Shown: positions 267-4,085 of the stretch, one piece after another
Layout: every line of letters begins with the position of its first letter
Position numbering within the stretch: position 1 is the stretch's first letter
Origin: a virus
Lineage: Duplodnaviria > Heunggongvirae > Uroviricota > Caudoviricetes
Virus record (IMG/VR): IMGVR_UViG_2671180846_000017
Span: 1 to 4,156 of that record
Strand: one strand, 5' to 3'
DNA length: 4,156 nt
Translations under genes and position numbers: made by a program
Notes under the pieces: model-generated
Told to the model about the DNA's origin: nothing
The model's database searches: none
The model's input: only the letters and a program-made list of their open reading frames with translations

Positions 267-1084
267 AACTGGAAGATTTACCGAAATACTACTCCCCAAA
301 ATCCCCCGGCCTGACTGATGCATCGGCCTCAACGTCGAAAGATACGCTGAGTATCACTGATGTGATGGCCGCGCAGGGCATGACACAGAATTGGGCTGAG
401 ATGGGGTTTTCTGCGTTCCTTGGGAAAATGGGCATTAGTATGAATGACAGAGAGCGGGCAACAGAATTGCTGACAGAATATGCACTCAGTCGGTGTGATC
501 GCGTGGCGGCGTTAAGAAAACTCCCGGCAGAAATAAAACCGGCAGTGATGCGTATTATGGCTTCGTATGCGTTTGAAGATTATGCCCGTAGCGCGGCGAG
601 CAAAAAACAGTGCCCCTGTTGTCACGGAAAAAAATTTATTGAAAGCGAGGTTTTTACAAACAAGATCCAGTATCCGGATGGTAAGCCGCCAGTGTGGGCA
701 AAGTGCACAAAAGGCGTGTATCCGTCTTACTGGGAGGAATGGAAAAAAGTCAGGGAGGTGGTAAAAGTTGCCTGTCCGGAGTGTGGAGGGAAGGGGGAGG
801 TTTCCACCGCCTGTAAAGATTGTCGTGGGCGCGGTGTTGCCATTCATCGTGAAGAGTCGGTAAAACGTGGTATGCCTGTTATCAGAGACTGCCAGCGTTG
901 TGGTGGTCGTGGCTATGAAAGATTACCTTCAACGGAGGCATTTAATGCCATATGTAATGTAACCGATGCCATATCTCTTGATACATGGAAAAAAACAGTT
1001 AAACGTTTTTACGATACGCTGGTGGTGCAGTTTGATATTGAAGAAGCATGGGCAGAACAACAACTGAAAAAGGTGACCAGATAG
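263..1084 (+). CDS. Q: Late-gene antitermination protein Q (lambda Q family) with expanded Cys-rich zinc-binding region
   Basis: A 273-aa ORF that is collinear with lambda Q as recalled from memory: YYSPKSP vs FHSPKSP, TDVMAAQGM vs TDVMAAMGM, FLGK vs FCGK, YAFEDYARSAAS vs FAYADYCRSAAT, CQRCGGRGYERLPSTEAF vs CGRCKGVGYSRMPASAAY, TWKKTVKRFYDTLVVQ vs TWSRTVKPLYDALVVQ, and a C-terminal VTR in both. It sits immediately downstream of rusA and immediately upstream of a lambda-like pR'/qut. It is about 65 aa longer than lambda Q because of an insertion in the zinc-finger region. Confidence 0.85.
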   Translation: MKLEDLPKYYSPKSPGLTDASASTSKDTLSITDVMAAQGMTQNWAEMGFSAFLGKMGISMNDRERATELLTEYALSRCDRVAALRKLPAEIKPAVMRIMASYAFEDYARSAASKKQCPCCHGKKFIESEVFTNKIQYPDGKPPVWAKCTKGVYPSYWEEWKKVREVVKVACPECGGKGEVSTACKDCRGRGVAIHREESVKRGMPVIRDCQRCGGRGYERLPSTEAFNAICNVTDAISLDTWKKTVKRFYDTLVVQFDIEEAWAEQQLKKVTR

Positions 1085-1089
1085 CTTTG

Positions 1090-1129
1090 TTGATTTTTCC
1101 CGAATCTGTGGTAAATTTGCCCTAACGAT
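1090..1129 (+). promoter_or_regulatory. Late promoter pR' with Q-utilisation (qut) / sigma70-dependent promoter-proximal pause element
   Basis: -35-like TTGATT (1090-1095), 16-nt spacer, extended -10 TGgTAAATT (1109-1117). The segment GGTAAATTTG...AACGATGGG (1110-1132) closely matches lambda pR' (GGGTAAATTTGACTCAACGATGGG, from memory). By the same spacing the predicted transcription start is A1124, and the -10-like pause-inducing AACGAT lies at 1124-1129. It is positioned directly after the Q stop codon. Confidence 0.6.
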
Positions 1130-1164
1130 GGGCGTTTTATGCCTGACGTTAGAAGATTTTTTAC

Positions 1165-1188
1165 ACCCGTCGCCAGGCGGGTTTTTTT
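1165..1188 (+). terminator. Intrinsic (rho-independent) terminator, tR'-like, downstream of pR'
   Basis: GC-rich hairpin ACCCG (1165-1169) / CGGGT (1178-1182) with loop TCGCCAGG, followed by a run of seven T (1182-1188). It lies about 60 nt downstream of the predicted pR' start, matching the lambdoid arrangement in which Q-modified RNA polymerase reads through tR'. Confidence 0.6.
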
Positions 1189-1291
1189 ATGACTGAAATC
1201 ACGCCAGTACAGTAAACGCGCTGGTGGTTGTGAATACCGGTCTTTCAGCTTGCTGGCTTTTTCGACAAGAGTTATTGGTGTGTCACGTTAA

Positions 1292-1684
1292 CCGGAAAAA
1301 GGAAAGTTTGAGAAACGCGATCTGGCACAGGCGGTTATTAATGCTGCCTACCTGGTGGCCTGTGCAGATGGTGAATGTGAGGCTTCCTAGAAAGCGAAGA
1401 TCGAACAGGTACTGCGTAATCAGCCTGCGCTGTCCGCGTTTACGTCAGAAATTAATGCGATTAGCGCAACCATTATCGGTCAGCTGGATACGAACTTTAA
1501 AATTGGTCGTCGTGCGGCGTTACGTGAGATCGAGGATGTGAAACACGATACGCGTGAAGCGGAAGATGTGCTGGATGTGGCGGTGGCCATTGCGGAGGCA
1601 GACGGCGAAATTGAGCCGGAAGAGCGCAAGGTGCTGGAAGAGATTGCCGGTGTTCTGGGTCTTCGTCTGGAGAATCACCAGTGA
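1292..1684 (+). pseudogene. TerB-family (tellurite-resistance TerB-like) gene remnant: N-terminally truncated with an in-frame amber codon
   Basis: A single frame translates as PEKGKFEKRDLAQAVINAAYLVACADGECEAS*KAKIEQVLRNQPALSAFTSEINAISATIIGQLDTNFKIGRRAALREIEDVKHDTREAEDVLDVAVAIAEADGEIEPEERKVLEEIAGVLGLRLENHQ*. It carries two ADG-acidic TerB-type motifs and aligns with E. coli TerB from memory (KKFMQGTVAVCARIAVASDGVSSEEKQKMIGFL...AVAKSDGNFDDDEKSAVREIAIALGF). The TAG at 1388-1390 falls where TerB has Glu. The frame is closed by TAA at 1289-1291 with no ATG between that stop and the TAG, and the roughly 25 N-terminal residues expected upstream are absent from this frame. Confidence 0.55.
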
Positions 1685-1797
1685 CGGTAAAACTGCGCCT
1701 GGCTGTGGCTGCACTCCTGCTGTTTCTGGTGGTGATGGTGGATTTCACCAGCAGAATCATGTCGGTGCTGGCGGATGGGGTGCTGGTCTGCGGCATT
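1681..1797 (+). CDS. Small hydrophobic (signal-peptide or transmembrane) protein, N-terminal part only; 3' end lost in the N-gap
   Basis: GTG start at 1681 overlaps the TerB-remnant stop (GTGA, 1681-1684), with GGAG 8 nt upstream (1669-1672). Translation is MTVKLRLAVAALLLFLVVMVDFTSRIMSVLADGVLVCGI..., a basic N-terminus followed by a hydrophobic helix, using E. coli-preferred codons (CTG, GTG, GCG rich). The reading frame runs into the N run at 1798, so its length and C-terminus are unknown. Confidence 0.35.
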
Positions 1798-1847
1798 NNN
1801 NNNNNNNNNNNNNNNNNNNNNNNNNNNNNNNNNNNNNNNNNNNNNNN
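1798..1847. other. Run of 50 N (assembly gap or masked sequence of unknown true length)
   Basis: Directly visible: 50 consecutive N characters. The ORFs that the six-frame track shows crossing it (poly-X) are artefacts. Confidence 1.
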
Positions 1848-2012
1848 CAAAAGTGTTGTTTCTGTTTTTCTCAAACTATCATCGTTATCCCTTTATTTCC
1901 GGCTGCGCATGGCGTGGCCTTTTTTTACGACCAGCCACTGGCAGATGGCCATCCTGTAATTTGATTCCGGTTCCGGCTTTTTAACTCTGTTCCTGTACAC
2001 GGGAGAAATTCG

Positions 2013-3950
2013 ATGTCGATTAAACATTATGATGTTGTCAGGGCGGCGTCGCCGTCAGACCTTGCGGAAAAGCTGACACAAAAACTGAAGGAGGGGTGGC
2101 AGCCATTTGGCAGCCCGGTGGCCATCACGCCTTATACTCTGATGCAGGCCATTGCGGCGGAAGGTGATGTCACCACACCTGTGTTGGTGAAGCCGTCGGA
2201 TGGAGAAGGCACAGTAATCAGCGCCACCAGAGACCCGGAGTATTACTTTGTTGTGGTTCTGGCGGGGCAGTCAAACAGCATGGCATATGGTGAAGGCCTT
2301 CCGCTGCCGGAGACATATGACCGTCCGGACCCGCGCATTAAGCAGCTGGCGCGTCGCAGTACGGTGACACCGGGCGGTGTCGCCTGTAAATATAACGACA
2401 TCATTCCGGCGGACCATTGTCTGCATGATGTGCAGGACATGAGCCGCCTTAACCATCCGAAAGCGGACCTGTCAAAGGGGCAGTACGGAACCGTGGGGCA
2501 AGGGCTGCATATCGCCAAAAAATTGCTGCCGTTTATACCGGCGAATGCGGGCATTCTGCTGGTTCCGTGCTGTCGTGGTGGTTCAGCGTTCACCACCGGA
2601 GCCGATGGCACATACAGTGACGCGAGTGGTGCCTCGGAGAATTCAACCCGCTGGGGTGTGGACAAGCCGCTGTATAAGGACCTTATCGGTCGAACAAAAG
2701 CAGCACTGAAGAAGAATCCGAAAAATGTGCTGTTTGCCGTGGTGTGGATGCAGGGGGAATTTGATTTTGGCGGTACGCCGGCAAATCACGCAGCACAGTT
2801 TGGTGCGCTGGTTGATAAATTCCGTGCAGACCTGGCGGATATGGCAGGTCAGTGCGTCGGTGGCTCTGCTGGCGGTGTTCCCTGGATCTGTGGAGATACG
2901 ACGTATTTCTGGAAGCAGAAGAACGAATCCTCGTACCAGACGGTGTACGGCAGCTACAAAAACAAAACGGAAAAGAATATCCATTTCGTACCGTTCATGA
3001 CCGATGAGAACGGGGTGAATGTGCCGACGAACAAACCGGAAGAAGACCCGGACATTCCGGGTATCGGATATTACGGTTCGAAATGGCGTGACAGCTCAGC
3101 CACCTGGACGTCACAGGACAGGGCGAGCCATTTCAGCGCCTGGGCACGCCGTGGGATTATTTCCGACCGTCTGGCAACGGCGATTTTGCGCCATGCGGGA
3201 AGAGTGGCGCTAAACGCGGGGGCATCATCGACAGTATCAGAGGTGCGCCCGTCATCGCCTTCCGGTGCAGAAGCCACAGGCGTCACAACACTGCTCTCTT
3301 ACCTTGCCAGCGAGTCAGAGGGAAGCCTGAAAGTACAGGGATGGTCAGCCAGTGGCGGCAGGGCAGAAGTGGTCAGCGATGCGGAGGGAACCGGAGGTAA
3401 GGCAGTGAAGCTGACCAAGGAAGCCGGTAAAAGCAGCTGGGTGCTGGAGTACGCCGCGGGCAACGGTGCGGCTCTGTTACAGAAAGGGGGGCAGATTCGC
3501 TGCCGCTTTAAGGTTTCGGGAGCGCTGGCTGCGAACCAGTATGTTATGGCGTTTTACTGGCCGGTCTCTTCACTGCCACAGGGCGTTGCCCTGACCGGAG
3601 ACGGGGGGAATAACCTGCTGGCAGCGTTCTACATCCAGACAGATGCAAAAGACCTGAATGTGATGTACCACAATGCGAAAGTGGCGACAAACAACCTGAA
3701 ACTGGGAACCTTTGGCGCATTTGATAACGAATGGCATACGCTGGCTTTCCGCTTTGCCGGGAATAACAGCCTTCAGGTGACGCCGGTTATTGATGGTCAG
3801 GATGGCACACCGTTCACGCTGACGCAGTCACCGGTCAGTGCATTTGCGGCGGATAAACTGCATGTGACAGACATTACCAGGAATGCGACTTACCCGGTAC
3901 TGATAGACAGCATTGTGGTGGAAGTGAACAGCACAGACACTGCGGCATGA
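2013..3950 (+). CDS. nanS-p: Prophage-encoded sialate O-acetylesterase, NanS-p type (DUF1737 N-terminal domain + SASA/SGNH esterase domain + C-terminal putative carbohydrate-binding domain)
   Basis: A 645-aa ORF with SD GGGAG 7 nt upstream of the ATG. It has the GQSNS motif (aa 85-89; Ser87 codon at 2271-2273) and WMQGEFD (aa 245-251), both characteristic of the sialate O-acetylesterase (SASA / YjhS-NanS) family. The N-terminal approximately 60 aa resemble a DUF1737-type domain. Size and three-part architecture match the NanS-p esterases found between the stx locus and the lysis genes of lambdoid/Stx prophages. It ends with a double stop, TGA TAA (3948-3953). Confidence 0.85.
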   Translation: MSIKHYDVVRAASPSDLAEKLTQKLKEGWQPFGSPVAITPYTLMQAIAAEGDVTTPVLVKPSDGEGTVISATRDPEYYFVVVLAGQSNSMAYGEGLPLPETYDRPDPRIKQLARRSTVTPGGVACKYNDIIPADHCLHDVQDMSRLNHPKADLSKGQYGTVGQGLHIAKKLLPFIPANAGILLVPCCRGGSAFTTGADGTYSDASGASENSTRWGVDKPLYKDLIGRTKAALKKNPKNVLFAVVWMQGEFDFGGTPANHAAQFGALVDKFRADLADMAGQCVGGSAGGVPWICGDTTYFWKQKNESSYQTVYGSYKNKTEKNIHFVPFMTDENGVNVPTNKPEEDPDIPGIGYYGSKWRDSSATWTSQDRASHFSAWARRGIISDRLATAILRHAGRVALNAGASSTVSEVRPSSPSGAEATGVTTLLSYLASESEGSLKVQGWSASGGRAEVVSDAEGTGGKAVKLTKEAGKSSWVLEYAAGNGAALLQKGGQIRCRFKVSGALAANQYVMAFYWPVSSLPQGVALTGDGGNNLLAAFYIQTDAKDLNVMYHNAKVATNNLKLGTFGAFDNEWHTLAFRFAGNNSLQVTPVIDGQDGTPFTLTQSPVSAFAADKLHVTDITRNATYPVLIDSIVVEVNSTDTAA

Positions 3951-3951
3951 T

Positions 3952-3987
3952 AAAAAAACCGCCAGCGACAGGAATGGACGCTGGCGG
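3952..3987 (-). terminator. Perfect 9-bp GC-rich hairpin with a U-tract on the minus strand only; candidate intrinsic terminator for leftward transcription
   Basis: CCGCCAGCG (3959-3967) and CGCTGGCGG (3979-3987) are exact reverse complements around an 11-nt loop. On the + strand the hairpin is preceded by A7 (3952-3958) and followed by TGGTGATACC with no T-tract. On the - strand it is therefore followed by U7, the canonical intrinsic-terminator layout. Confidence 0.4.
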
Positions 3988-4085
3988 TGGTGATACCTAT
4001 GGAGAAAAAATAAAGGAACGATACTTTCGTACTCTGGTTTTTTAATGAAAACAGTTCTTATTGTCAACAATAACGGAAAGAAATT

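Follow-up and report, generated by a model that had tools for sequence, protein, structure and literature searches.

A TerB-family cargo pseudogene with an amber codon and a 5′ deletion in the late-regulatory region of a lambdoid prophage

The window, by which we mean the whole 4,156-nucleotide stretch of DNA analysed here, is the late-regulatory region of a lambdoid prophage. Its features are as follows, with the supporting evidence in brackets.

3–266, + strand: 3′ part of rusA, a Holliday-junction resolvase gene (Pfam RusA PF05866, E = 3.9e-9; labelled RusA family protein in matching finished genomes)
263–1084, + strand: late antiterminator Q, 273 aa (Pfam Antiterm PF03589, E = 4.7e-50; labelled antitermination protein in finished genomes)
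1090–1189, + strand: putative pR′ and tR′ region (promoter-like TTGATT at 1090–1095 and TAAATT at 1112–1117; hairpins at 1118–1134 and 1165–1182)
1190–1305, + strand: conserved post-tR′ leader (collinear with the MS20674 locus, L004 1–575, at 90% identity; includes the FFDK triplets at 1258–1269)
1303–1305, + strand: junction AAA of the deletion, where the leader meets TerB codon 17/18 (BLAST segments against L004)
1304–1684, + strand: TerB/TciA-like pseudogene remnant, codons 18–143 plus stop (Pfam TerB, E = 7.6e-15; PGAP label)
1388–1390, + strand: amber codon TAG in place of GAG, Glu46 (alignment to intact alleles)
1538–1684, + strand: residual 48-aa ORF with a GTG start, the C-terminal third of TerB (ORF list; phrog_3920 match)
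1681–1797, + strand: first 39 codons of a TciB-like/DUF3927 small membrane protein (Pfam DUF3927, E = 3.4e-11; remainder masked by the N gap)
1798–1847, no strand: run of 50 N (about 199 bp in finished genomes, by alignment to B19374 and CB9615)
2013–3950, + strand: nanS-p-like sialate O-acetylesterase, 645 aa (Pfam DUF1737, SASA and DUF6645), forming the downstream edge of the cargo slot

The promoter-like element in 1090–1189 is laid out as TTGATT, 16 nt and TG-n-TAAATT; it is conserved and is followed by two hairpins. We regard the pR′ assignment, made from sequence and position, as putative; the promoter scan did not flag the element because it matches the consensus at only 8 of 12 positions. 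A terminator scan found two terminator-like hairpins in the tR′ region, each with a T-run after it, and the pR′/tR′ region is almost identical in MS20674 and phage Evi. This layout would produce a short terminated leader transcript, a type that gives rise to regulatory sRNAs in Stx phages (StxS).

On the downstream side, the N gap corresponds in finished genomes to sequence in which the DUF3927 gene ends and which includes most of a match to an STnc100-family sRNA (Rfam RF02076, locus L001 3769–3941, 100.8 bits); in MS20674 the same intergenic region carries STnc100 twice in tandem, along with an AsxR match. According to a 2026 preprint, STnc100 is related to the PasD sRNAs, located beside the sialate esterase gene, and TerB (PF05099) is one of the conserved neighbours of PasA and PasC, which are prophage sRNAs. 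Window 1901–1929, upstream of the esterase gene, contains a strong terminator-like hairpin, GGCTGCGCATGGCGTGGCC, with T7 after it, and 3′ of the gene, at 3950–4080, the intergenic DNA is AT-rich; by position, the two are candidate Pas-type sRNA sites flanking the esterase gene. The gene itself shares 92.8% DNA identity with the YjhS-like ORF46 region of the Stx2 phage Min27. A 105-aa ORF in the +1 frame (1224–1541) was set aside as spurious, its Arg-rich composition marking it as an off-frame read-through of TerB sequence.

The original prediction had placed an open frame, closed upstream by TAA at 1289–1291, from position 1292 to TGA at 1682–1684, with TAG at 1388–1390 and the FFDK triplets at 1258–1269 in another frame, and all of these coordinates are correct. 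The frame from 1292 translates as PEKGKFEKRDLAQAVINAAYLVACADGECEAS, a stop, KAKIEQ... and finally IAGVLGLRLENHQ before the terminal stop. TerB homology begins at 1303/1304 (codon 18) rather than at 1292, the codons of 1292–1303 being leader sequence that is in frame by chance. When the 130-aa translation, with TAG read as Glu, was searched against Pfam, it matched TerB (PF05099) over profile positions 2–109 of 118 with E = 7.6e-15 and a score of 55.7 bits, far beyond chance given the cut-off of 24.4 bits; the proposed family membership is therefore correct. Both ADG-acidic motifs can be recognised, ACADGECEAS, followed by the stop in place of E46, and AEADGEIEPEE, and the first is destroyed in the window in that its Glu is the TAG codon. 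Two such acidic DG...E motifs presumably make up the metal-binding site of TerB. The remnant shares about 92–98% DNA identity with the TerB genes of the MS20674 and OkiPb01679 loci (L004 and L003) and is 99% identical to the allele of phage Evi. Because the start and codons 1–17 are gone and codon 46 is amber, the window copy is a TerB-family pseudogene and not a functional member of the family. Identity as an anti-phage defence family was rejected, since PADLOC returned only a sub-threshold match (PDC-S48, E = 0.0035) and NCBIfam only weak matches below cut-off, for example DjlA, with 28.6 bits where the cut-off is 162.

Comparison with related prophages confirmed that the amber codon replaces a conserved Glu through a GAG to TAG change, as had been proposed: GAG stands at this codon in every one of the 83 full-length intact alleles examined. 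In the first DGx5E acidic motif, Glu46 is the conserved Glu; its counterpart in the solved Klebsiella TerB (2JXU) is likewise a Glu. It lies seven residues past Asp39, a spacing equal to that between Asp117 and Glu124 of the second motif. Neither the window nor the related loci yielded a suppressor tRNA in ARAGORN; the tRNAs of the related loci are limited to Ile/Met(CAU) and Arg, and the window has none. On these results suppression or recoding of the codon was rejected. Upstream of TAG the window offers just one candidate start, a GTG at a distance of 11 codons.

The N-terminus and start codon have indeed been lost, in that codons 1–17 are absent from the window copy. A deletion or a frameshift had been suggested as the cause; the deletion stands, as a clean loss of about 1.9 kb, and the local frameshift does not, because the BLAST segments of leader and TerB are collinear with their counterparts on both sides of the junction. 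Window 731–1305 (Q, pR′/tR′ and leader) corresponds to L004 1–575, and window 1303–1787 (TerB from codon 17/18 on) to L004 2501–2985. Relative to MS20674, about 1,925 bp are missing, comprising a 65-aa ORF, a DNA methyltransferase gene, three tRNA genes (tRNA-Ile(CAU), read by ARAGORN as Met, tRNA-Arg(UCG) and tRNA-Arg(UCU)) and TerB codons 1–17. In undeleted prophages the leader runs on as ...GGGAAAAAGACATG, also given as ...CCGGAAAAGGGAAAAAGACATG, into the start of the small 65-aa ORF, and the leader at 1190–1305 ends within the ribosome-binding region of that ORF. Both parental breakpoints carry AAAAAG, which fits a microhomology-mediated illegitimate deletion; the junction sequence in the window is GGAAAGTTTGAG.

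This arrangement also accounts for FFDK, which had been taken for an N-terminal TerB fragment. Although an alignment with MAFFT gave a weak similarity to the TerB N-terminus, collinearity with the post-Q leader overrules a frameshifted N-terminus: the triplets are part of the conserved post-tR′ leader and not a TerB remnant, because the same leader is present in prophages whose intact TerB lies 1.9 kb downstream. Many complete genomes match the leader segment alone (query positions 1–116), where no gene is annotated.

Intact alleles, which had been proposed as the appropriate comparison, are present in related prophages, including E. coli MS20674 (WP_001304604.1) and the phages Evi and PPyecE_EH1910. 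They encode 143 aa from an ATG start, begin MFGIFKKKTRRAAAEIKKFEKRD... and have GAG at codon 46. The PPyecE_EH1910 gene is labelled 'TciA/TerB-like protein', and the Evi allele matches the full length of the profile phrog_632 ('tellurite resistance', moron category) with E = 1.7e-69, while its partner orthologue matches phrog_1470 ('TciB-like') at 4e-30. The intact allele also matches the PDB entry of TerB, 2JXU, with E = 4.4e-8 over residues 14–137, and homologues in Erwinia jumbo phages are about 70% identical. The partner DUF3927 protein is 55 aa long in finished genomes, and its GTG start overlaps the TerB stop (GTGA). Homology suggests that the intact protein is a cytoplasmic TerB-domain protein with acidic motifs that acts with a small membrane partner. 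By homology to TerB and TciA, its role would be membrane-associated and metal-binding, in stress or exclusion; modulation of envelope or ion stress and the exclusion of colicins or phages are conceivable functions. A full-text literature search found no functional study of the module.

The original prediction had also located the gene in the slot that Stx phages use for stxAB. In MS20674 the order is Q, a hypothetical ORF, methyltransferase, three tRNAs, TerB, DUF3927 and esterase; in the Stx2a phage Min27 it is Q, ileZ, argN, argO, stx2A, stx2B and the yjhS-like esterase. Homology between the two stops 43 nt before stx2A and restarts 46 nt after stx2B, and the tRNA flank is common to more than 200 Stx2 phage records. 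The intact pair thus sits between tRNA-Arg and the nanS-p-like esterase, where Min27 has stx2AB, and the claim is accurate for the intact allele because both the gene order and the homologous flanks match. In the window, the tRNA side of the slot was lost with the deletion.

To place the lesions in order, loci were classified by pairwise alignment, covering the 80 top-scoring IMG/VR relatives, 88 TAG-bearing IMG/VR contigs and the loci from complete genomes. Full-length alleles with GAG numbered 83. TAG was combined with the window-type junction at about 51 loci and with an A6-to-A7 frameshift at codons 7–8 at about 32, and was the sole lesion at three to four; the combination of GAG with the junction was found at none (0 of 83 GAG alleles). 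TAG came first, since it is combined with three different 5′ states and the deletion is absent from all GAG alleles, and the allele classes indicate that two different secondary lesions arose in separate TAG sub-lineages. An example of the A6-to-A7 homopolymer frameshift is found in OkiPb01679 (L003 2451–2480).

The description of the gene as a decaying cargo gene is borne out by relaxed selection in the TAG lineage and by lesions in the partner gene. Among intact alleles, variant codons comprise 16 non-synonymous and 80 synonymous cases, which indicates strong purifying selection. TAG-private variants, in comparison, number nine non-synonymous to five synonymous (Fisher p = 4e-4; neutral site ratio 3.2:1), a shift indicative of relaxed selection on TAG-lineage alleles, the test itself being no more than indicative with 14 TAG-private substitutions in alleles that are related and recombining. 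The private changes include D39N, at the Asp of the first ADG motif. Moreover, the DUF3927 partner is truncated or frameshifted at 25 of 84 TAG loci (~30%) versus 5 of 78 GAG loci (~6%), a contrast that may be inflated because the intact IMG/VR loci were picked by best score, which favours unbroken genes. These partner-gene lesions point to decay of the whole module. The truncated form of DUF3927 in TAG-lineage loci is 43 aa long. At the boundary of the two genes, the last TerB codon of the window (1679–1681) is CAG (Gln), in place of the CTG (Leu) of all intact alleles; this L143Q change, one base before the DUF3927 GTG start, is confined to a sub-lineage of 11 loci.

The profile phrog_3920 (48 positions, 'unknown function') matches residues 96–143 of the intact protein exactly, the same segment that the residual 48-aa ORF encodes. 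This ORF is probably not expressed, though it is called as a gene in some phage annotations: the Shine-Dalgarno-like GAGG at 1532–1535 is just 2 nt from the GTG at 1538. Selective retention of the ORF was rejected, as the density of TAG-private non-synonymous changes in codons 96–143 (H98R, D105E and L143Q) is the same as upstream. The profile appears to have been built from pseudogene fragments, and the C-terminal ORF, being such a fragment, is not to be handled as a gene family.

A megablast search with window 1085–2012 located the region in 2,449 of 5,426 complete E. coli genomes, with at least 80% query coverage in 326; the top matches were mostly O157:H7, O55:H7, O103 and O45 strains. With allele-specific megablast probes against the same genomes, the TAG allele was counted in 577, at up to five copies per genome, and the GAG allele in 755. 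The window-type junction together with the TerB remnant is present in 475 genomes. From Q to the DUF3927 gene, B19374, CB9615 and E2865 agree with the window at every base of the TAA, of the TAG and of all that lies upstream, and E2865 is 100% identical over window 1190–1690 (501 nt). In these three strains PGAP annotates a 'tellurite resistance TerB family protein' as a pseudogene with an internal stop, and RefSeq carries the pseudogene flag in all four finished genomes whose annotation was read (B19374, CB9615, E2865 and OkiPb01679). The allele is already known as a RefSeq pseudogene and the family is known too, so that the finding is an ordinary one.

We consider it about 93% probable that window 1304–1684 is the non-functional remnant of a 143-aa TerB-domain phage cargo gene that was killed by the TAG codon and then lost its 5′ end in the ~1.9-kb deletion. 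The possibility that the lesions are errors of a draft assembly and that the gene is really intact had been raised because the N run at 1798–1847, 110 bp away, points to a draft or masked source; however, the same TAG, TAA and junction recur base for base in finished genomes, including the identical E2865 sequence, the TAG is found in 577 complete genomes and 88 IMG/VR contigs, and PGAP calls the internal stop independently. Sequencing error is thereby refuted, and an intact gene at this locus is next to inconceivable. It is very unlikely, too, that the gene still functions, whether by read-through or suppression of the amber codon or through the 48-aa fragment, which would start at GTG 1538, retain ADGEIEPEE and act with the TciB-like protein. 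Such function would agree with a frame that stays open from TAG to the normal stop, with the calling of the 48-aa ORF often enough to earn its own PHROG family (phrog_3920), and with the commonness of the allele (577 genomes). Against it stand the deletion of the ATG and codons 1–17, which leaves only a GTG 11 codons before TAG, the lack of any suppressor tRNA in the ARAGORN results for the window and related loci, and the cramped 2-nt spacing of GAGG at GTG 1538, as well as the mostly non-synonymous character of the TAG-private substitutions (H98R, D105E, L143Q and D39N among them), the independent secondary disabling lesions and the concurrent decay of the partner gene.

A different question is why a dead allele should be so frequent. 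Positive selection in EHEC-type lineages may have favoured inactivation, for instance if the gene was redundant with the chromosomal ter island, conflicted with it or interfered with prophage induction, and the dead allele may then have spread by recombination among co-resident lambdoid prophages. Selection and recombinational spread would explain how the dead allele came to rival the intact one in frequency (577 versus 755 genomes, with up to five copies per genome), and the predominance of O157:H7, O55:H7, O103 and O45 strains among the top matches fits this setting. Yet the frequency is confounded by heavy clonal sampling of EHEC and by hitch-hiking with a successful prophage module, and intact alleles show no repeated independent knock-outs; since all TAG alleles share one mutation, TAG had a single origin. 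We hold selected loss to be improbable.

On the preferred reading, that of a cargo gene killed by TAG and then truncated, the ancestral locus would have carried the TerB and TciB-like/DUF3927 pair in the late operon, past Q, pR′, tR′ and three tRNAs and before nanS-p. In a first step, the Glu46 codon changed from GAG to TAG; in a second, about 1.9 kb was deleted between the short A-rich AAAAAG repeats, so that the leader now adjoins TerB codon 18. By its position, the remnant is most likely still transcribed from pR′ under Q control as part of the late transcript, but it yields no TerB protein. Some read-through of the amber codon at a low level, or initiation at the internal GTG at 1538, is conceivable. 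The persistence of the remnant is due to its place in a prophage module that is widely shared and recombining. As such, the locus is a case of routine prophage cargo-gene decay and of low importance in itself. In the context of prophage mosaicism, it illustrates that the stx slot of Stx-like prophages can carry a TciA/TciB-type module instead of the toxin, and the natural TAG and deletion alleles offer ready-made null controls for the intact TciA/TciB-like module.

Among known systems, the nearest are the PGAP TerB pseudogenes of O55:H7 CB9615 (G2583_RS28545) and E2865 (EL389_RS13495), which are 98–100% identical to the window copy and represent the same allele, with the same internal stop, the same 5′ truncation and no substantive difference. 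The stx2AB cassette of Min27 is equivalent in position only, the TerB gene being unrelated to Shiga toxin in sequence or function. Klebsiella TerB, from the terZABCDE operon for tellurite, phage and colicin resistance and with an NMR structure (2JXU), has the same domain and two DG-acidic motifs; in contrast to it, the present gene shows low identity, is phage-borne and inactivated here, and is without TerC, TerD, TerZ and TerE partners. Of the named relatives, TciA from phage P1 comes closest, the tciA regions of P1 being 39–51% identical to the intact allele. Unlike P1, the present module shows no tciC-like third gene and the window copy is a pseudogene, while the P1 genes are named by homology only. 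The P1 module lies between the dmt and ban genes and the present one in a lambdoid prophage late operon. In P1, tciA-tciB-tciC has Asn and Thr tRNA genes upstream and Ile-CAU downstream (L176 1565–3225); the P1 and prophage modules alike adjoin tRNA genes, and tciA and tciB show the same kind of stop/start overlap as the prophage pair.
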